Origin: Bacilli bacterium
Lineage (GTDB): Bacteria > Bacillota_I > Bacilli_A > RF39 > UBA660
NCBI GenBank assembly: GCA_022795155.1
Contig: JAAWGF010000003.1
Coordinates: 13,775-77,774 of the forward strand
Reading direction: 5' to 3'
Length of the DNA: 64,000 bases
Positions 1,426 through 44,797 of this stretch are shown here, piece by piece (position 1 is the first letter of the stretch; the number at the start of each line of letters is the position of its first letter). A program made the position numbers and the translations under genes. The notes under the pieces were generated by a model. The model had not been told where the DNA came from, made no database searches, and worked only from the letters and a program-made list of their open reading frames with translations.

Positions 1426-3825
1426 TTACTTTATAACAATATTAACGATTTTAGATTGAATTACAATAATTTTAACAATTTCTTTTCCATCAATAAATTT
1501 TTTAACATTATCTATTTCAAGCGCTAATGCTTCCATTTCTTCTTTGGATGTATTAATATCAACTTCTAATTTTCCTCGAACTTTACCATTAACTTGAACA
1601 ACCATTTGATATTTTTCTTCTTTTGTCTTATTAATATCAAACTCTGGCCATCTAGAATAACTAATAGTATCATTATTCCCTAAAATTTGCCATAATTCCT
1701 CTGTTATATGCGGTACTACCGGATTAAGTAGTTTTAAGAAATTTAAAGCATACGCAAGTGGAAATACCTCTTCTTTATAAACGGCATTAATAAAAATCAT
1801 CATTTGACTAATAGCTGTATTAAAATTCATCGTCTCATAATCTTCGGTTACTTTTTTTACTGTTTGATGATATATTTTCTCTAAATTTTTATTATCGCTA
1901 TCTTTAATTTTATTCTCTTCAACATATAAACGCCAAACACGATCTAAAAATTTTTTTGACCCTTCAATACCATTTGGATCCCATGGTTTAGCGGCATCGA
2001 TGGGTCCCATAAACATTTCATAAAGTCGTAAACTATCAGCACCATAAAGGTTTACCATATCATCAGGATTAATAACATTTCCTTTTGATTTACTCATTTT
2101 TTCACCATTTGGTCCCAATATCATACCTTGATGACGCAATTTATGAAATGGTTCTTTAGTTGTTGTATATCCTTTATCAAATAAATAATTATTCCAAAAT
2201 CTTGAATATAATAAATGCCCTACAGCATGCTCTGGACCACCAACATATAAATCAACTGGCATCCAGTGCTCTAATAGTTTTTTATTAGCAAAATCTTCAT
2301 TATTGTCTGGATCAATATATCTTAAAAAATACCAACTTGAGCCAGCTGATCCAGGCATTGTACTTGTTTCTCTTTTACCCTTAACACCATCAATCTCTAT
2401 ATTAACCCAATCCTCAGCTTTATTAAGGGGGCTAGCACCTGTTTTACTTGGACTATAATCCTCTAAAGTAGGTAAAACTAGTGGTAATTTTGAATCATCT
2501 AAAACAATATCTTGATTATTTTCTAGATGGACAATTGGAATTGGTTCTCCCCAATATCTTTGACGAGCAAAAATCCATTCTCTTAAACGATAATTAATTT
2601 TTTTATTGCCTAACTTTTTATCCTCTAACCAATTAATCATCTTATCAATAGCGTCTTTTTTATTTAAACCATCAAGGAAATCAGAATTAATATGAGTACC
2701 ATCGCCAATATAAGGAAGTTCTGTATTATTACTATCTATGTTTTTAATAACAGGAGCAATTTCAATATTAAATTTTTGTGCAAATTCAAAATCGCGTTCA
2801 TCATGGGCAGGAACGGCCATAATCGCACCTGTCCCATAAGTTGCTAAAACATAATCAGCAATCCAAATAGGAATCTTTTTGCCATTTACAGGATTAATCG
2901 CATAGCTACCTGTAAAAACACCAGTTTTTTCTTTACTTAATTCTGTACGCTCTAATTCACTTTTACTAGCACATATAATCTTATAATTTTTTACATCTTC
3001 TGAACATTCTTCAGTAGTTATTTTATCAACTAAATCATGTTCTGGTGAAAGGACACAGTATGTAGCACCAAACAAGGTATCAGGTCTTGTCGTAAAAACT
3101 GTAAAAGTGTAATCGGTATTATTAACTTTAAAATCGACGTGAGCGCCAATCGATTTGCCAATCCAGTTTCGTTGCATCTCCTTAGTTGATTCAGGCCAAT
3201 CAATTTCATCTAAGCCATCAAGTAATCTATCTGCATATTTAGGAATATCAATAACCCATTGTTTCATATTTTTTCTAACAACTGGAAAACCACCACGTTC
3301 ACTTTTACCATCAATAATCTCATCATTAGCTAAAACAGTTCCTAATGCTTCACACCAATTAACTGGCATGTCAATATTTTTGGCTAAACCATCATTATAT
3401 AATTGTTTAAAAATCCATTGTGTCCATTTATAAAAGTTAGGGTCACAAGTAGAAACTTGTCGATCCCAATCAAAAGAAAATCCTAACATTTTTAATTGTT
3501 TTGTAAAAGTATCAATGTTTTTTTTCGTAAATCCTTCTGGATGATTGCCTGTTTTAATCGCATATTGTTCAGCTGGAAGTCCAAATGAATCAAACCCCAT
3601 AGGGTGCAAAACATTAAATCCCTGCATTCTTTTCATACGTGATACAATATCTGTTGCTGTATAACCTTCTGGATGCCCTACATGTAACCCTTGTCCTGAT
3701 GGATAAGGAAACATATCCAAAGCATAATATTTAGGCTTACTAAAATCCCAGATATCTGTTTTAAAAGTTTTATTCTCTTCCCAATATTTTTGCCATTTTT
3801 CTTCTATTTTTTTAAAATCATACAT
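1426..3825 (-). CDS. leuS: Leucyl-tRNA synthetase
   Basis: 799 aa; class I HIGH-type motif (HVGHPEGY), KMSKS motif, LeuRS length and editing-domain layout. RBS AAAGAGGG upstream. ATG overlaps the TAA of the upstream small ORF (TAATG). Confidence 0.97.
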
Positions 3826-3826
3826 A

Positions 3827-4171
3827 TTATTTACCCTCTTTCTTTAGTAATGACTTAGCTAAAATATGATAGCTAACTAATATAAGTGGAAATAAAGCAA
3901 CAAAGCCCAATAACATTTTTAAAATAAATTTATCAATAAATAAAACAATTATAAATGTCGTTGAAATTATGAAGCTATCGCATAAAGCTATCCGGTTAGA
4001 TAACGTACGTAAATTAATGGTTTCTATATTGATATGATAACGGTTAATTAAATATCTAACTTCCAAACTCTTTTTTAATTTTTCACTAGCTTTTTTCCTT
4101 TTCACAACAAATAAAAAATAAATTATGTAAACAAATATAAAAGTAATAATGTAAGTACCTAAGTATTTCAT
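3827..4171 (-). CDS. Small hydrophobic membrane protein, unknown function, translationally coupled to leuS
   Basis: Track ORF 3827..4192. The start is more likely ATG at 4171 ([11 protein letters not shown]...) because a strong RBS GAAGGAGG sits 5 nt upstream and the 4192 start would make the RBS coding. Two or three predicted TM helices. Sits between the Leu T-box and leuS. Confidence 0.5.
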
Positions 4172-4192
4172 AATGCCTCCTTCAAAACACAA

Positions 4193-4417
4193 AAAAGATA
4201 TTATTCTTTAAGGACGAGGATAACCCGCGGTACCACCTTAATTCATAATAATCTTTATGCTCTTAATATTTTTAACGCAAATGTACGTCATATATTTAAC
4301 ATATATGAAGCTAAGAAAGTAAGTTCATAATATTCAATTAAAAGTTTTCACCAACCACTTTTTCTCTAAAAACATCTATATTATTACTACTCTTTCGTAA
4401 TCACTTTTTATAAACTA
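4193..4417 (-). promoter_or_regulatory. T-box riboswitch leader, leucine-specific (UGGU bulge, putative CUU specifier)
   Basis: Minus strand reads AATTAAGGTGGTACCGCGGG (plus 4224..4244), a near-perfect match to the T-box consensus AAnnnGGGUGGnACCGCG. The UGGU bulge pairs with the ACCA end of tRNA-Leu (discriminator A). Antiterminator: UUAAGG/[UGGUACC]/GCGGG-UUAUC-CUCGU/CCUUAA. Stem I carries AGAGA..AGUGG..GGUGAAA distal-loop-like motifs and GAACUUA (CUU Leu codon). A weak AU-rich hairpin and U-run follow. Confidence 0.8.
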
Positions 4418-4423
4418 AAAGAA

Positions 4424-4452
4424 TTATAACATATATATAGTTATAATTCAAC
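4424..4452 (-). promoter_or_regulatory. Sigma-A type promoter for the Leu T-box / small ORF / leuS operon
   Basis: Minus strand TTGAAT(4452..4447)-17 nt-TATAAT(4429..4424), immediately downstream of the DUF3037-like gene stop. Confidence 0.6.
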
Positions 4453-6287: not shown

Positions 6288-8714
6288 TTAAACTTCACTA
6301 ATATATTCTAATAATTTTAAGAATAATCGAATGAATTTTCTTTCTAAACCAACTTTTTTTAATTTACGAAGCGCTATTCTTTTTTTCTTAAGTGGTAATT
6401 CACTAAAAATAATTTGATCTATCGTTTCCTTCATTTCCGTTTCAATCTGTAAATCATATAAAATTGATTGAATCTCCTCATTAATTAATCTAACTGTGTC
6501 TATTTCAATGTTTTTACCCTTGCAATTAAGTGTTAATTGACCAATTGTCGGAATCTCATTTATTTCAACTACAAAGTCATTATCTTCAATATAACTTTTA
6601 TATTGGACAGGCTCATTATTAAAATAAATAATAACATCATTAGCCTCTTTCGTATTTCTAAATCGAACTTTATAATTTCGTTTTTCAGGAACAATACCAC
6701 TTTTACCTTCAAGGGCTCTAATTATAACTGTATAATTATTCGGCAAATAATTATATTCAATTGAAGATTTTAAATAATAACCCGTTTTATAAAGATCACT
6801 AACACCATCATCTTCATATAATTCATATTTATTGCTTCGTCCCGGAAAAATTTGAATTTCCATATTTTTAGGTGGTGTTGTATCATTCATATTTTCATTA
6901 TCACCCAATGCAATAATAGATCCAGCTTTGGCAAAAACTGGGTAATCATCATCTTTAAAGAAAGACACATAATTTTTACCACCAGGGAACTTTTTCCCAG
7001 TAACAAAATCATACCAAATCCCCTCTGGCATATAGAATTTGTGAATAACTCGTTGCATAACAGATTCTTTTTTATTTATAATGGGACAAATGAATAGCTC
7101 ACTACCTAAATAATATTCATTTCTATAAATTGGATCATCATACATCTCAGGGTTTTTATAATAAATTGGCTGAATAACAGGAACACCATGTTTATGATAT
7201 TTGTAAGCTTCTGTATATAAATAAGGAATTAAACGATGACGTAATTTTAAATAATCCTTAACAATATTATAAGTTTTATACCCCCATTTCCATGGCTCAC
7301 GACGATAATATTTACCTTTTTCACTACCAAATTTTAAAATGGGACTAAATGTTCCTAATTGAACATAGCGTGTATATAATTCATCATCCTCAATACCTTT
7401 ATAAAAACCACCAATATCATGACTCCACCAACTTACACCATTATTAGCTGCACTTGCATTATGAATTGGAATAAGTTTCAAAGTAGCCCAACTAACAGTG
7501 CTTTTTCCCGAATATAAAACAGGATAACGATGTGGCGCAATTAAGGAATTAGTTGTAAGTAACATTGGTCTTCTTTTATAATTTCGCATCATATCATAAA
7601 AATGATAATGATTTAAAATCCATAAATCATCATTTTTTTTAGGATTGTTATAATCTAACCAAAAGAAATCAACATCTAAATTATCCAATGGATGAATAAG
7701 TAGTTTTAAATATACGTCTAAAAATTTAGGATCTAAAACATTAAAAGGAATAATTGTTCCAGGCGTAACTTGTAAATATTCGCATATCTTATTATAATAA
7801 ACTTCATAAGGATAAATTCCTGAACTCGGATCGATATTTAATCCTAACCTAATTCCTTTCGAATGAAGATAAGCAATTATTTCCTTAGGATTTTTTATTA
7901 GCGTATTATTAAAAGTAAAACCTGTTTCGATATTTGATACTTCATCATACTTATTTAAATGCCATTCATTATTTAAAACAATAACGGAAAGGGGAATATT
8001 TTTATTTTCAAAATTAGAAACCAATTCGCCTAGACTATCATCAGTATATGAGATATTACGACTCCACCAATTTCCTAAAGCATAACGAGGAATTAAAGCT
8101 GGATACCCAGTTAAACGATAATAATCATCTAAACAACCTTGGAAATTTTTATAATACATAAATAAATAAATATCAATATCATTTTTATCATTATTACGTT
8201 CAATAACGCTACCAGTTTCTTCAATTATTAAGCTTTTAGAATCATCAATACTAACAAAGCCATCAATAGAATATAAACCTTTTTTATATTTGGCCCTATG
8301 TTTTTTCCCTTTTTTTTCATATAACTCTAAACCTGGGCTACCGTAATTACGTACTTCAGGATGACCATAATACCAAATGCGATCACTACCTAATAACTCA
8401 ACTTTTAGATTAGCGGTTGGATTTATTTTAGTAGCAGGAAATGGCTTATCTTTTAAATAGGTTAAGCAAAAGTATTTAGTAGTTATTTCTAAATATTTCG
8501 CATCCTGTTTAACTTTAAAGTCAACTACCCCTAAATCCCTATGCCATGCAAACTGGGTTGGTCGATCTTCAAAAATTCCATTTTCACTATACTCTAATCT
8601 AACTAATCTTTCAGTAATAACGGAAATACGATATTTTTGGCCTACCATTATACATTTTGGATTAACTTTAGATAATGTATAATCTATTTCAAATTGTTCG
8701 CCAATCTTATACAT
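6288..8714 (-). CDS. Glycoside hydrolase family 31-like protein (alpha-glucosidase/alpha-xylosidase type)
   Basis: 808 aa. WLDYNNP (nucleophile Asp region) and WSHDIGGF (acid/base region) fit the GH31 TIM barrel. Size and N-terminal beta-sandwich typical. Confidence 0.65.
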   Translation of the reverse strand: MYKIGEQFEIDYTLSKVNPKCIMVGQKYRISVITERLVRLEYSENGIFEDRPTQFAWHRDLGVVDFKVKQDAKYLEITTKYFCLTYLKDKPFPATKINPTANLKVELLGSDRIWYYGHPEVRNYGSPGLELYEKKGKKHRAKYKKGLYSIDGFVSIDDSKSLIIEETGSVIERNNDKNDIDIYLFMYYKNFQGCLDDYYRLTGYPALIPRYALGNWWSRNISYTDDSLGELVSNFENKNIPLSVIVLNNEWHLNKYDEVSNIETGFTFNNTLIKNPKEIIAYLHSKGIRLGLNIDPSSGIYPYEVYYNKICEYLQVTPGTIIPFNVLDPKFLDVYLKLLIHPLDNLDVDFFWLDYNNPKKNDDLWILNHYHFYDMMRNYKRRPMLLTTNSLIAPHRYPVLYSGKSTVSWATLKLIPIHNASAANNGVSWWSHDIGGFYKGIEDDELYTRYVQLGTFSPILKFGSEKGKYYRREPWKWGYKTYNIVKDYLKLRHRLIPYLYTEAYKYHKHGVPVIQPIYYKNPEMYDDPIYRNEYYLGSELFICPIINKKESVMQRVIHKFYMPEGIWYDFVTGKKFPGGKNYVSFFKDDDYPVFAKAGSIIALGDNENMNDTTPPKNMEIQIFPGRSNKYELYEDDGVSDLYKTGYYLKSSIEYNYLPNNYTVIIRALEGKSGIVPEKRNYKVRFRNTKEANDVIIYFNNEPVQYKSYIEDNDFVVEINEIPTIGQLTLNCKGKNIEIDTVRLINEEIQSILYDLQIETEMKETIDQIIFSELPLKKKRIALRKLKKVGLERKFIRLFLKLLEYISEV

Positions 8715-40748: not shown

Positions 40749-42530
40749 TTATAAATTATTTAAGAATTCTAATAAATTTTTAGCTACTTTTTCAGGAAGT
40801 ATTTCTGATAATTCCTGTGTGCTAGCTTCTTTCATTTTAGTTAAATTATGATATTTTTTAAGCAATTCTTTCTTTCTTTTTTCGCCAATACCTTCAATAT
40901 TATCAAGTGTACTAGATAGACTCCCTTTGCTCCTTATCTGTTTATGATAATTAATCGTAAATTTATGAACTTCATCCTGCATTCGCTCTAAATAATAAAA
41001 TAAATTACTTTTCCTATCAATTGGTATTTCAACAATTGGATTATGTGCTAGTAGCGCATTAGTAGCATGATGATCATCCTTTTTTAATCCGACAATAGGA
41101 ATATTTAAACCAAGGGAAGTAATAACTTCTCTAGCAACATTAATTTGTCCTAGCCCACCATCGACAATAATTAAATCAGGTTTAGTTAGGTCATCTTTTA
41201 AAACACGGAAATATCTCCGATATATAGCTTCATGCATTGTCCCATAATCATCATTTTTATCTAAGGTTATTTTAAATTTTCGATAATCATTTTTACTAGG
41301 TTTACCATCAATGAAAACAACCATACCTGATACATTAAATGTTCCAAAAAGATGAGCATTATCAAAAAGTTCAATACGATCTAATTTACTTAAATTTAAA
41401 ATATTTTTAAGTTCTTCATTCGCACCAATTGTTTTTTCTTCATCTCTTTTAATAAGTTCGAATTTTTCTTCTAATAAAATTTTCGCATTATTATTAGCCA
41501 TTTCAACTAATTTATTTTTAACACCTTTTTGCGGTTTAATAATTTTTACATTTAAATATTCAAATAAAAGTTGTTCATCAACAACACTTGGTACAATAAT
41601 TTCTTTTGGCAGTATTATACCTTTATCATAAAATGTTGCTATATATCTATTTACTTCCGCTTCTAATTCATCAATTAAAGGCATAATTTTTGAGTGCTTT
41701 TCAACTATTTTCCCACCACGAATAAAAAATACTTGCATTGATAAATAGCCTTTATCGGTATAAAAGCCAAATATATCCGTATTAATATTGTCTTTTATTT
41801 CAACTTTTTGTTTTGTTAAAACTAGTTTTATATAATCAAGCATCTCTTTTAACTCTTTTGCTTTTTCATAATTCATATTTTCACTTTGAAGATACATCTC
41901 ATCCTCAATTTTCTTAGTTATAAAACTATGATCCCCATTTAAAAAATGGATTATTTCATTTTTTATTTGGTCAATTATTACTTTATCAATTTTATATTGA
42001 CAATACCCTAAACATTCATGAATATGGTAATATAAACATGGTTTTTTATCAAATGTTTTACATTTACGTAAAGGATACAACCTATTTAATAAGTTAACCG
42101 TATTTCTAGCGGCCGTAACATTAGGATATGGTCCATATAAATTGGTATTCTTTTTACGTTTGCGATTAATATTTCGAACAATTGATAACTTCGGTATATC
42201 TTCATTTATAAATTCAATATATGGATAACTTTTATCATCACGTAACAAAATATTATATTTTGGATCATATTTTTTAATTAAATTATTTTCTAAAATTAAA
42301 GACTCAATTTCTGATTCAACAACAATATATTCAAAATCGACAATCTCACTAACTAATTTAGCTGTTTTACCAGTATGAGTTCCTCTAAAATAAGAGCTTA
42401 GACGCCTTTTTAATCTTTTGGCCTTGCCAACATAAATAATCACCCCATCGCAATTTTTCATTTGGTAACAGCCAGGTTTCTCTGGCACTAAACTCAATTT
42501 TTGTTTTATTTTTTGATTTACATTATCCAT
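40749..42530 (-). CDS. uvrC: Excinuclease ABC subunit C
   Basis: 593 aa; N-terminal GIY-YIG (GCYQMKN...IIYVGKAKRLKRRLSSY), UvrBC-interaction region, RNase H-like endonuclease domain and C-terminal HhH. Confidence 0.96.
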   Translation of the reverse strand: MDNVNQKIKQKLSLVPEKPGCYQMKNCDGVIIYVGKAKRLKRRLSSYFRGTHTGKTAKLVSEIVDFEYIVVESEIESLILENNLIKKYDPKYNILLRDDKSYPYIEFINEDIPKLSIVRNINRKRKKNTNLYGPYPNVTAARNTVNLLNRLYPLRKCKTFDKKPCLYYHIHECLGYCQYKIDKVIIDQIKNEIIHFLNGDHSFITKKIEDEMYLQSENMNYEKAKELKEMLDYIKLVLTKQKVEIKDNINTDIFGFYTDKGYLSMQVFFIRGGKIVEKHSKIMPLIDELEAEVNRYIATFYDKGIILPKEIIVPSVVDEQLLFEYLNVKIIKPQKGVKNKLVEMANNNAKILLEEKFELIKRDEEKTIGANEELKNILNLSKLDRIELFDNAHLFGTFNVSGMVVFIDGKPSKNDYRKFKITLDKNDDYGTMHEAIYRRYFRVLKDDLTKPDLIIVDGGLGQINVAREVITSLGLNIPIVGLKKDDHHATNALLAHNPIVEIPIDRKSNLFYYLERMQDEVHKFTINYHKQIRSKGSLSSTLDNIEGIGEKRKKELLKKYHNLTKMKEASTQELSEILPEKVAKNLLEFLNNL

Positions 42531-42573
42531 TTAAATCACCAACTATTTTTATTATAACAAAAAGAAGGCTAAT

Positions 42574-42942
42574 TTAAGCCCCTTTTATGACAATTTTTTT
42601 AACTTTTACTTTTTTAGGTTGGCGTTTTTGATGCTTAATACAATAGTTATTTAAAATGGCCAGTGCTTGATTACGAGAAATAAATTCTTTATCTATATTA
42701 ACAAGTTTTATAATCATAACACGTGTTTCTCCATTTTGATATTTTCCTAAATTATCTTGATTAAAATAATTATATTTACCATCATTTAAAACATCAACAA
42801 AATCATATTTATCATTGTTTATTCTTCCTAGAATATAACTTTCTACCATAAAGAATTGCCCAATAGAATTATTAAAAATTTTGATTGCAAGAGCAATACA
42901 CAGTCCATTTGTTCCAATACTTTCTATATTTTCTATATTCAT
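42574..42942 (-). CDS. Hypothetical protein
   Basis: 122 aa; basic C-terminus; no recognisable family. Confidence 0.35.
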   Translation of the reverse strand: MNIENIESIGTNGLCIALAIKIFNNSIGQFFMVESYILGRINNDKYDFVDVLNDGKYNYFNQDNLGKYQNGETRVMIIKLVNIDKEFISRNQALAILNNYCIKHQKRQPKKVKVKKIVIKGA

Positions 42943-43110: not shown

Positions 43111-43704
43111 ATGAAAACGATTAAAAAAAATGTAACTAATGAAATTATCATAAATAAATCAAGATTTATTACTAAATTAATAAAGATTAATAATGAAGAA
43201 GAAGTAAGAGAAAAATTAGCTCTTTTAAAAAGAGAATACAAAGACGCTACTCATTATTGTTATGCCTATATTACTGGTAATATTAAAAGATTTAACGATG
43301 ATGGAGAACCTAGTGGAACAGCTGGTATGCCGATTTTAAATGTTTTAGAAAATAATAATTTAACGAATATTTTGGGGGTTGTCATTAGATATTTTGGTGG
43401 TATTAAACTAGGTGCTGGTGGTTTAGTTAGAGCTTATACGAAAGCTATAACAGAATGTTTAAATCATATTGAAATAGTTAATTTAACTAGTGGCATAAAT
43501 TTTAAAATTGAATTTACTTATGATTTTGTCAAAAAAATTGATAACATTTTAAAAAACCAAAAAATTACTTATAAAGAATATGATAACAATATTATTTATG
43601 AATGTAGTTTAACAAAAGATAATTTTCAAAAATTAAAAAAAGAATTAGAAACTAACTCTTTAACTTTAGAAATAATAGATGAAACATTAGTCGAGATTGA
43701 TTAA
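43111..43704 (+). CDS. yigZ: YigZ/IMPACT-family protein (UPF0029)
   Basis: 197 aa; KSRFI..., DDGEPSGTAGMPIL, VIRYFGGIKLGAGGLVRAY are hallmark IMPACT N-domain motifs. Confidence 0.85.
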   Translation: MKTIKKNVTNEIIINKSRFITKLIKINNEEEVREKLALLKREYKDATHYCYAYITGNIKRFNDDGEPSGTAGMPILNVLENNNLTNILGVVIRYFGGIKLGAGGLVRAYTKAITECLNHIEIVNLTSGINFKIEFTYDFVKKIDNILKNQKITYKEYDNNIIYECSLTKDNFQKLKKELETNSLTLEIIDETLVEID

Positions 43705-43712
43705 TGTTTTTT
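43590..43712 (+). repeat. Direct repeat copy 1 (the native 3' end of yigZ)
   Basis: About 120 bp, about 95% identical to 44427..44549 (same orientation); includes the yigZ stop codon. Confidence 0.85.
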
Positions 43713-43727
43713 GATTTATAATATACA

Positions 43728-44030
43728 TTACTTAAATAATTCACTGTGGCTTCCAGTTGCAAAAAGTAATAAAATTAACTTTTCATCTTCCATTTGATAA
43801 ACCAAAAGCCAATCAGGTTCAATATGACATTCATAACAATCTTTATAAATCTTATTATTTATAAGATTATGATTTTTATATTTAGAGTCTAATGCTTGAC
43901 CATTCGCTAATACTTTAAGAACATCTAAAAATTTATTTTCATCTTTGCCCTGTTTCAAGATTCTCTTGAAATCTTTTTTAAATTGGCTAGTAAATTTTAC
44001 TTCATATTTGGTATTTTGCAAATCAAGCAT
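43728..44030 (-). CDS. yafQ: Type II toxin, RelE/ParE superfamily (YafQ-like mRNA interferase)
   Basis: 100 aa; YKDCYECHIEPDWLLVYQMEDEKLILLLFATGSHSELFK matches the YafQ C-terminal signature (ECHIKPDWLLIY...RTGSHSDLF). Confidence 0.8.
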   Translation of the reverse strand: MLDLQNTKYEVKFTSQFKKDFKRILKQGKDENKFLDVLKVLANGQALDSKYKNHNLINNKIYKDCYECHIEPDWLLVYQMEDEKLILLLFATGSHSELFK

Positions 44031-44321
44031 TTACTTTTTTAAATCCTCAAGCATTTCATACATATTGTGGTAGCCTTTTGTTTTCATCTTTCCATTTAAT
44101 ATATTTTCACCATCCTGTAGTGCTTCCAATAAATTTTCACTGGGTTTCGGATTTTTAACTTCAAATGGCAAACCGTCTTTATATATCAATTGTTTAATAG
44201 CCATATTTACAAATGTACTCATATTAAGCCCTAGACTTTTCAAAATTCCATTGGCAACTTCTTTGTCATGATTATCTACTTGTACACTAATTGCACTTGT
44301 AAGTGTTTCCATATTATACAC
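44031..44321 (-). CDS. dinJ: Type II antitoxin, DinJ/RelB family
   Basis: 96 aa; LKSLGLNMSTFVNMAIKQLIYKDGLPFEV matches the DinJ ribbon-helix-helix family. Stop abuts the toxin start (TAATG-type coupling). A palindromic operator lies upstream. Confidence 0.75.
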   Translation of the reverse strand: MYNMETLTSAISVQVDNHDKEVANGILKSLGLNMSTFVNMAIKQLIYKDGLPFEVKNPKPSENLLEALQDGENILNGKMKTKGYHNMYEMLEDLKK

Positions 44322-44426
44322 CTCTTTTTCAATTTTATGTTATCATATAATATTGTATATTGTCAATATAATATTTTAATTATATTCAATAATATTATAT
44401 GCAGATCAAAAAAATATATTAGCGAA

Positions 44427-44549
44427 ATTATTTATAAATATAGTTTAACAAAAGATAATTTTAAAAAATTAAAAAAAGAATTAGAAACTAACTCTTTAAC
44501 TTTAGAAATAATAGATGAAATATTAATCGAAAGTGATTAATGTTTTTTA
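44427..44549 (+). repeat. Direct repeat copy 2 (duplicated yigZ 3' fragment, non-functional)
   Basis: Encodes ...YSLTKDNFKKLKKELETNSLTLEIIDEILIESD, a duplicate of the yigZ C-terminus, without the rest of the gene. The track ORF 44268..44540 is an artefact of this fragment. Confidence 0.85.
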
Positions 44550-44797
44550 CAATTTTGTAAAGATTTATTAGACTTTTTACTATCTTTCAAAAGTTCATCT
44601 AAATTCACATTTAAATTCCTATACAACTTAATAGCTTCTTTATGCATAATATATGGTCGTGGTGGTGAAACAACTGGTCTTATCTGACAAGTACCAATAT
44701 CTTCAACATTACAAACTGAACAATAATCATCATATAAAGTTTTTGCAAAAATATCTTGATAATATTTTTTATAATTTTTTTCTATAATTCGTGCCAA
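44537..44797 (-). CDS. Hypothetical small Cys-containing protein
   Basis: 86 aa; CSVCNVEDIGTC motif; convergent with the yigZ duplicate (stops overlap). Confidence 0.35.
   Translation of the reverse strand: MARIIEKNYKKYYQDIFAKTLYDDYCSVCNVEDIGTCQIRPVVSPPRPYIMHKEAIKLYRNLNVNLDELLKDSKKSNKSLQNCKKH

Follow-up and report, generated by a model that had tools for sequence, protein, structure and literature searches.

Insertion with long target duplication has been described for restriction-modification genes (Nobusato et al. 2000, Gene 259:99; Furuta et al. 2010, PMC2853133). In the published cases the inserted units lie, without mobility genes, between direct repeats of variable length (46-423 bp) that often span a stop codon, and a relative carries an empty site to which the repeat aligns as one copy (PMC2853133). 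The mechanisms by which toxin-antitoxin pairs integrate into chromosomes have been called poorly characterised (Belot et al. 2026, PMC13617665); in Photorhabdus, ParE/RelE pairs are flanked by two copies of a palindrome, of which one is present at the empty site, and the resemblance of this palindrome to the res site of Tn3 suggests resolvase-type recombination (PMC13617665). The present analysis concerns a solitary DinJ/RelB-YafQ toxin-antitoxin pair at the 3' end of yigZ in a stretch of 64,000 nucleotides (64 kb) of the Bacilli contig JAAWGF010000003.1, hereafter the window, which contains approximately 24% G+C, fits the standard bacterial code and has as its nearest relatives metagenome-assembled genomes of uncultured gut 'Bacilli' or 'Tenericutes'. 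With a probability of roughly 0.78, we read this locus as a single old insertion of the pair, accompanied by a duplication of at least 122 bp of target sequence at the yigZ end and followed by vertical inheritance, the second repeat copy (copy B) being left as a relic.

Like the described long target duplications, the yigZ locus combines a small addiction-type unit, the lack of mobility genes, repeats spanning a stop codon, and intact neighbours. Among the features by which Furuta et al. (2010) screened genomes, an insert shorter than 20 kb without mobile-element genes (here 714 nt, the pair only), a direct repeat longer than 30 bp (122 bp) and a single-copy empty site (in the related locus L002) are all found; the restriction-modification cargo is not, and this is a criterion of the authors' screening and not a feature of the rearrangement. 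The locus also differs from those cases in that its cargo is an RNase-type toxin without DNA-cutting activity, whereas theirs includes a nuclease able to make breaks, and in that the event at yigZ appears to be old, extends across species and was followed by repeat decay and gene conversion. The Photorhabdus ParE/RelE pairs are similar in being solitary, chromosomal, devoid of mobility genes and located between two hairpin-forming copies that are single when the site is empty, but the repeats studied here are ordinary local sequence, different at every site and from 24 to 122 bp long. Islands placed by an integrase at the 3' end of a tRNA or protein gene likewise have direct repeats that reproduce the target 3' end; unlike them, the yigZ cassette has neither an integrase nor other cargo, and its site is not reused. 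As for the pair itself, it shares its Pfam families, the antitoxin-first gene order and the YafQ catalytic residues with DinJ-YafQ of Escherichia coli and HP0892/HP0894 of Helicobacter pylori, and differs from the E. coli system in its host, an uncultured low-GC gut Bacilli lineage.

Occupied and empty yigZ loci

The direct repeat reported in the earlier note is real, with two ungapped copies of 122 nt in direct orientation, identical at 115 positions (7 mismatches, 94.3% identity). It starts at yigZ codon 161 and thus comprises 37 codons and the stop followed by 8 nt, more than the 33 codons given in that note, and to its left weaker similarity may reach approximately 18-30 nt further (173 nt at 83%). 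No third copy of the repeat is present in the 64-kb window, and the cassette enclosed by the two copies likewise occurs there once. As the earlier note had stated, nothing lies between the copies except a RelB/DinJ-family antitoxin (PF04221) and a YafQ-family toxin (PF15738) with their promoter; the description of a minimal toxin-antitoxin islet, devoid of an integrase and flanked by a duplication of the yigZ 3' end, is therefore upheld.

A scan of one genome per species yielded 71 yigZ loci (species level), referred to below, together with other loci in related genomes, by L-numbers; L082, L086, L093 and L087/88/90 were added by look-ups of toxin relatives. The empty site anticipated by the earlier note is represented by L002, in which yigZ directly abuts the convergent gene, overlapping its 139 codons by 4 nt, and dgkA comes next. 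The repeat segment is present there in a single copy (6481-6602), with which copy A aligns, and its flanks are conserved on both sides; the uvrC protein of L002 is 94% identical to that of the window. Loci L003-L007 also lack the toxin-antitoxin pair. Six species-level lineages are occupied, namely the window, L087/88/90, L086, L001, L082 and L093. They are approximately 10% apart in DNA, and the cassette is located at the same two junctions in all six, including a 9-nt junction segment common to the window, L086 and L087 and present in a diverged form in L082. All same-species contigs are occupied, and the full arrangement is spanned in the independent assemblies L001, L072, L081, L082, L086, L087, L088 and L093.

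Many short-read contigs of the window's species (L074-L080) end within copy B, in a stretch where it does not differ from copy A (equivalent to positions ~44470-44510), as expected if those samples contain both copies. Since the repeat breaks assemblies, occupied sites may be under-represented in collections of short contigs. A conserved 24-nt pattern from the yigZ tail had no match in metagenome or viral contig collections, which lack this lineage and thus added neither empty nor occupied alleles.

DNA distances of the toxin-antitoxin pair follow those of uvrC and of the unduplicated part of yigZ, with values of 0.046, 0.079 and 0.115 for the pair and 0.064, 0.097 and 0.105 for the host genes in comparisons of the window with L087, L086 and L001, respectively. 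The dN/dS ratios are 0.08-0.21 for the toxin and 0.02-0.11 for the antitoxin, at dS of 0.2-1.0, a pattern that indicates strong purifying selection on both genes. In L086 the pair is eroded: the antitoxin (~341-622) contains two nonsense codons, and the toxin (623-928) carries the substitutions H69Y and H95Y. The B copies of the window, L087, L086 and L093 possess B-specific states (e.g. TATAAAT) that are not found in A copies and, being shared, indicate the origin of these B copies in one duplication. The identical junctions, the divergence of the pair in step with the host genes and the low dN/dS together argue for one old, vertically inherited insertion. The ancestor in which it took place, on this reading once, would have belonged to an uncultured clade of low-GC gut Bacilli and given rise to at least six species-level lineages; from then on the pair would have passed down vertically with purifying selection acting on it, and in one lineage it eroded.

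Repeat copies, neighbouring genes and content of the cassette

The two repeat copies have had different fates. Copy B lacks internal segments in L082 and in L093; in L087 it is cut short along with the ~140-codon convergent gene, and in L086 it no longer matches copy A at 38/122 positions (31%). Since it is deleted, truncated or degraded in four lineages, copy B is dispensable and appears to be a decaying relic without a function of its own. The two copies are far closer to each other in the window (7/122 differences) and in L001 (2/122, 98% identity) than in L086, and within each of these two genomes they carry the same lineage-specific substitutions, namely C75 for the window and G21/T24/T26 for L001. 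Because the copies are nearly identical despite the dS between lineages, we attribute their likeness in the window and L001 to repeated gene conversion between A and B. On this view, deletions and substitutions would erode copy B wherever it is not restored by conversion with copy A, and this would explain why A/B identity stands at 94% in the window and at 98% in L001. Some unusual states of the yigZ end of the window (KDNFQKL) are shared with B copies of other lineages, which suggests that conversion also ran, in the direction we propose, from the relic B into the working yigZ end.

The point of insertion would correspond to the 4-nt overlap between yigZ and the convergent gene of 140 codons, and the duplicated segment of at least 122 bp would comprise, besides a terminator-like hairpin with a T-run, the last 37 yigZ codons with the stop and the terminal codons of the convergent gene. 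Because it holds both gene ends, the duplication would have left each neighbour with a complete end. The hairpin is also found in L001 and L002 (6571-6602 in the latter), one of its stem pairs being C-G in the window and L001 and U-A in L002, and it is probably a terminator common to both convergent genes; a simple terminator scan does not list it because its stem contains too few G-C pairs. Copy B overlaps the stop of the convergent open reading frame (ORF) exactly as the single yigZ end does in L002, so that the second copy meets the convergent gene as the native end would, in agreement with the earlier note. The 86-aa gene which that note placed here is a pseudogene remnant: to align the sequence with the L001 and L002 proteins, two or more frameshifts have to be crossed, and the 86-aa ORF (44537-44797), which is also present in independent assemblies of the window's species, is the C-terminal part of the frameshifted ~140-codon gene. 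This gene is intact in L001, L002 and L082, is deleted in L087/88/90, and has no match among Pfam families.

The toxin matches the structures of YafQ, HP0892 and HP0894 in PDB at E values of 1e-11 to 1e-14 and is 34% identical to E. coli YafQ. In the BLASTP alignment, its residues H54, H69, D73, H95 and F99 correspond to H50, H63, D67, H87 and F91 of E. coli YafQ, which we take to be the catalytic residues. Among 24 homologs, D73 and F99 are invariant, and H54, H69 and H95 are invariant or nearly so, the loss of H69 and H95 being confined to the eroded toxin of L086. The antitoxin matches DinJ (PDB 9lew_A, 1.6e-5) and likely starts at the ATG at 44312, which gives 93 aa and agrees with the gene calls, rather than at the GTG at 44321. 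The antitoxin gene is located directly upstream of the toxin gene, with its stop abutting the toxin ATG. By toxin family, catalytic residues and adjacent antitoxin, the pair is thus assigned to the type II systems of the DinJ/RelB-YafQ type, as far as sequence can tell. Membership in these families suggests that the toxin is a ribosome-dependent mRNA endonuclease, its catalytic residues being intact, that the antitoxin neutralises it, and that the antitoxin probably represses the operon at a palindrome covering the -35 hexamer; for a growth arrest by the toxin and its relief by the antitoxin, the strong purifying selection on both genes is indirect support. The palindrome TATATTGTCAATATA, noticed before, is unique in the window, contains the TTGACA hexamer of the best promoter match and is preserved with at most two changes in L001, L082, L086, L087 and L093.

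Table 1. Features of the yigZ locus, in coordinates of the window.
Feature	Position	Strand	Evidence or remark
yigZ (IMPACT/UPF0029 family), 197 aa, intact	43111..43704	+	PF01205, 128.5 bits
Repeat copy A, working 3' end of yigZ	43591..43712	+	codons 161-197, stop and 8 nt beyond
Terminator-like hairpin (13 pairs) and T-run	43681..43712	+	holds the yigZ stop, right end of copy A; -11.4 kcal/mol, z = -4.3
Inserted cassette (promoter, antitoxin, toxin), 714 nt	43713..44426	-	alignment of occupied and empty loci; absent at the empty site
YafQ-family toxin, 100 aa	43728..44030	-	PF15738, 105.5 bits (cut-off 30), 1.8e-30
RelB/DinJ-family antitoxin, 93 aa	44031..44312	-	PF04221, 34.2 bits (cut-off 22.4)
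Sigma-70-like promoter (TTGACA, 18 nt, TG-TAACAT)	44337..44366	-	best match in the scan, 10/12 positions; consensus match only
7-1-7 palindrome (TATATTG-T-CAATATA), candidate operator	44356..44370		sole exact copy in the window
Repeat copy B, non-coding relic of the duplicated target	44427..44548	+	115/122 identical to copy A
Pseudogene of the convergent gene of ~140 codons	44537..44965	-	three-frame translation compared with the L001 and L002 proteins

Between uvrC and yigZ, a 122-aa ORF on the minus strand (42574-42942) has no Pfam match and is variable, consisting of 128 aa in L002 and being fragmented in L001. The left junction (43707-43729) resembles the start of uvrC (42509-42531) over 23 nt, which was judged to be an AT-rich chance match.

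Related cassettes at other sites

Eighty metagenome loci with members of the family, representing approximately 42 distinct contexts and 306 kb, were examined in BLAST-based screens for direct repeats of at least 22 nt at a spacing of 400-1500 nt. Six repeat pairs were found in the 306 kb, five of which enclose the toxin-antitoxin pair. The repeats are 73 nt in L096 (starting at the ACCA of a tRNA-Thr and including its terminator), 32 nt in L103 (terminator after a tRNA-Ala), 31 and 24 nt in L129 and L095, respectively (terminator hairpins in both), and 36 nt in L097, the one case among the five in which they are Clustered Regularly Interspaced Short Palindromic Repeats (CRISPR). The cassettes of L096 and L103 are approximately 90% identical, with unrelated flanks and repeats. 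A perfect or near-perfect repeat of 40 nt surrounds an 868-nt cassette in L174/175/179, and the same cassette is located at rimP-nusA in L189, there without a repeat. Flanking repeats were also absent in the contexts of L083/84 (DUF285 protein), L092 (peptidase S51) and L184 (gyrA-ylbD). The same cassette family thus occurs elsewhere at unrelated sites with different site-specific repeats (24-73 bp), and not attached to yigZ tails, where the earlier note had proposed to look for it.

At five of six repeat-flanked sites, yigZ included, the cassette is located just after a terminator-like hairpin and T-run, which is duplicated on its far side. These terminator-linked repeats are a hint, suggestive only, of a recurrent insertion route that would need no recombinase. 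A more general form of this idea, which we offer tentatively and with the odds against it, is that in low-GC gut Bacilli the solitary DinJ-YafQ cassettes travel as units of nothing more than promoter and pair, integrating beside intrinsic terminators through a recombinase-free host process that duplicates 24-122 bp.

Several of these loci show further peculiarities. In L097 a CRISPR array (1874-3041) is interrupted by a gap of 738 nt in which the DinJ-YafQ pair (2253-2794) lies; the 36-nt repeat GTTTGAGAGTCTTGTTATTCTGTATGGTTCTAAAAC, spaced at a period of 65-66 nt, occurs four times to the left of this gap and four times to the right, eight in all, and the 4.7 kb examined contain no cas genes. 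The toxin of the tRNA-Ala-linked locus L103 (2501-2797) contains an in-frame stop (LLVY*YED), while that of its close relative L096 is intact. Approximately 650 nt past the toxin-antitoxin insertion in L096, a gene resembling a tyrosine integrase (3444-4424) abuts a tRNA-Ser (3345-3435); an exact direct repeat of 23 nt lies close to either end of the gene (3483-3505 and 4323-4345), which has no established connection with the pair. In L174, L175 and L179, a DDE transposase gene (PF01609; 2331-3360) begins approximately 25 nt beyond the toxin. As called, the 5' end of this gene reaches into the second 40-nt repeat copy, and the target of the cassette may here have been the end of an insertion sequence.

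Route of entry and significance

The cassette was compared with the main classes of mobile elements. No integrase or site-specific recombinase gene is present within approximately 4 kb on either side or in any of the six occupied lineages, and the neighbours of the cassette are housekeeping genes. Terminal inverted repeats are at chance level, with an inverted end-to-end alignment score of 10 against 9.5 +/- 1.6 in shuffled sequences; a transposon, insertion sequence or miniature inverted-repeat transposable element was rejected for want of such repeats and because the duplications are long and variable (24-122 nt), not short and fixed. An integron gene cassette was rejected as well, since the flanks are not attC-type sites common to the cassettes but copies of the local target that differ between sites with near-identical cassettes. 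The suggestion of the earlier note that the yigZ 3' end behaves as an attachment site, or a recurrent target of recombination, is not supported: a recombinase gene is lacking, the six occupied lineages share the same junctions and point to one old event, and the site is not reused in other genomes. Across the 71 species-level loci, a second yigZ-tail copy was found in L001 only, which belongs to the same event, the other matches being gene-end terminator palindromes; no other yigZ-tail duplication exists among 70 other species. Plasmid and phage collections contained only distant YafQ relatives (<60% identity), and no vector was identified in them.

No DNA enzyme is encoded in the cassette, and a host process is therefore the most likely cause of the duplication step itself; examples would be breaks with a wide stagger that are then filled in, or template switching of replication at the hairpin. 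The yigZ locus seems to fit insertion with long target duplication better than homology-guided entry via yigZ, because members of the cassette family at unrelated sites have different, site-specific repeats. The best-surviving form of the latter, which we regard as unlikely, is that a circular unit composed of the pair and a yigZ tail enters related genomes by a single RecA crossover in the yigZ 3' end and leaves by recombination between the repeats, the tail acting as an attachment site that needs no recombinase; such a life cycle was proposed for restriction-modification units by Kobayashi's group (PMC2853133). A single crossover would yield exactly the observed structure, an 836-bp unit bounded by 122-bp repeats capable of recombination, and precise excision or patchy spread would explain why the empty L002 is nested among occupied lineages in uvrC. 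Such traffic is at odds with the divergence of the pair in step with the host genes, with the B-specific markers shared across lineages and with the occupation of all same-species contigs; the unit of pair and yigZ tail was also not found outside the clade in the scanned metagenome and viral contig collections, in which the lineage is not represented. Moreover, a first event creating the duplication would still be needed.

Duplication of the target gene's 3' end is common among integrative elements, which also often have a toxin-antitoxin pair close to one end. On account of this general habit, the locus might be viewed as what is left of an island or prophage with an integrase, for which the yigZ 3' end served as attachment site and of which everything but the pair was later lost. 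We consider this quite improbable, given that neither an integrase nor other cargo is retained in six lineages, that the yigZ tail is not duplicated in the 70 other species, and that the repeats of related cassettes are variable (24-73 nt) and start after the tRNA rather than inside it. Still less probable is that each lineage acquired its own insertion, with the local yigZ tail duplicated anew every time. Separate insertions would account for the lineage-specific substitutions shared by A and B in the window, L001, L082 and L093, but not for the identical junctions with their common 9-nt segment, the shared B-specific states and the divergence of the pair with its host; L086, in addition, shows copy B as it looks without conversion. 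A chimeric join or collapsed repeat in a metagenome-assembled genome is hardly credible: the sequences do all come from metagenome assemblies, and the repeat is where many short contigs stop, but independent assemblies from different samples and species span the arrangement, with lineage-specific differences.

Some observations weigh against a single old insertion with vertical inheritance. The empty L002 lies inside the same star-like radiation (approximately 10% divergence) and has L082 as its nearest relative by uvrC. Incomplete sequences distorted the first trees, and counts of site patterns were split over L002, with 15 sites for L002 as outgroup against 14 for L002 as sister to L082; this leaves room for a secondary precise loss in L002, or for more than one gain. 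The mechanism of duplication is reconstructed rather than observed, a host process being the most likely. The repeats at the other sites are taken to be target-derived because near-identical cassettes carry different repeats at different sites. Finally, all data derive from metagenome assemblies, in which many contigs are broken by the repeats.

The single old insertion with long target duplication thus brings together a known toxin-antitoxin family and a known, little-studied type of rearrangement, at a site that is not active now. Its value lies in being a clean, dated example, with an empty site and six descendant lineages, indicating that a toxin-antitoxin pair can arrive by the route of long target duplication, so far documented for restriction-modification genes. 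The aftermath is visible as well: the pair appears to have been selected through speciation and eroded once, and the duplicated tail to have decayed or been homogenised by gene conversion. If the terminator-linked repeats hold up, they would provide a sequence signature for genome-wide screening and experimental testing. If the terminator-side route is true, long target duplication would be a general entry route for addiction modules, toxin-antitoxin and restriction-modification alike, and the resulting repeats would later permit their RecA-mediated loss or transfer.

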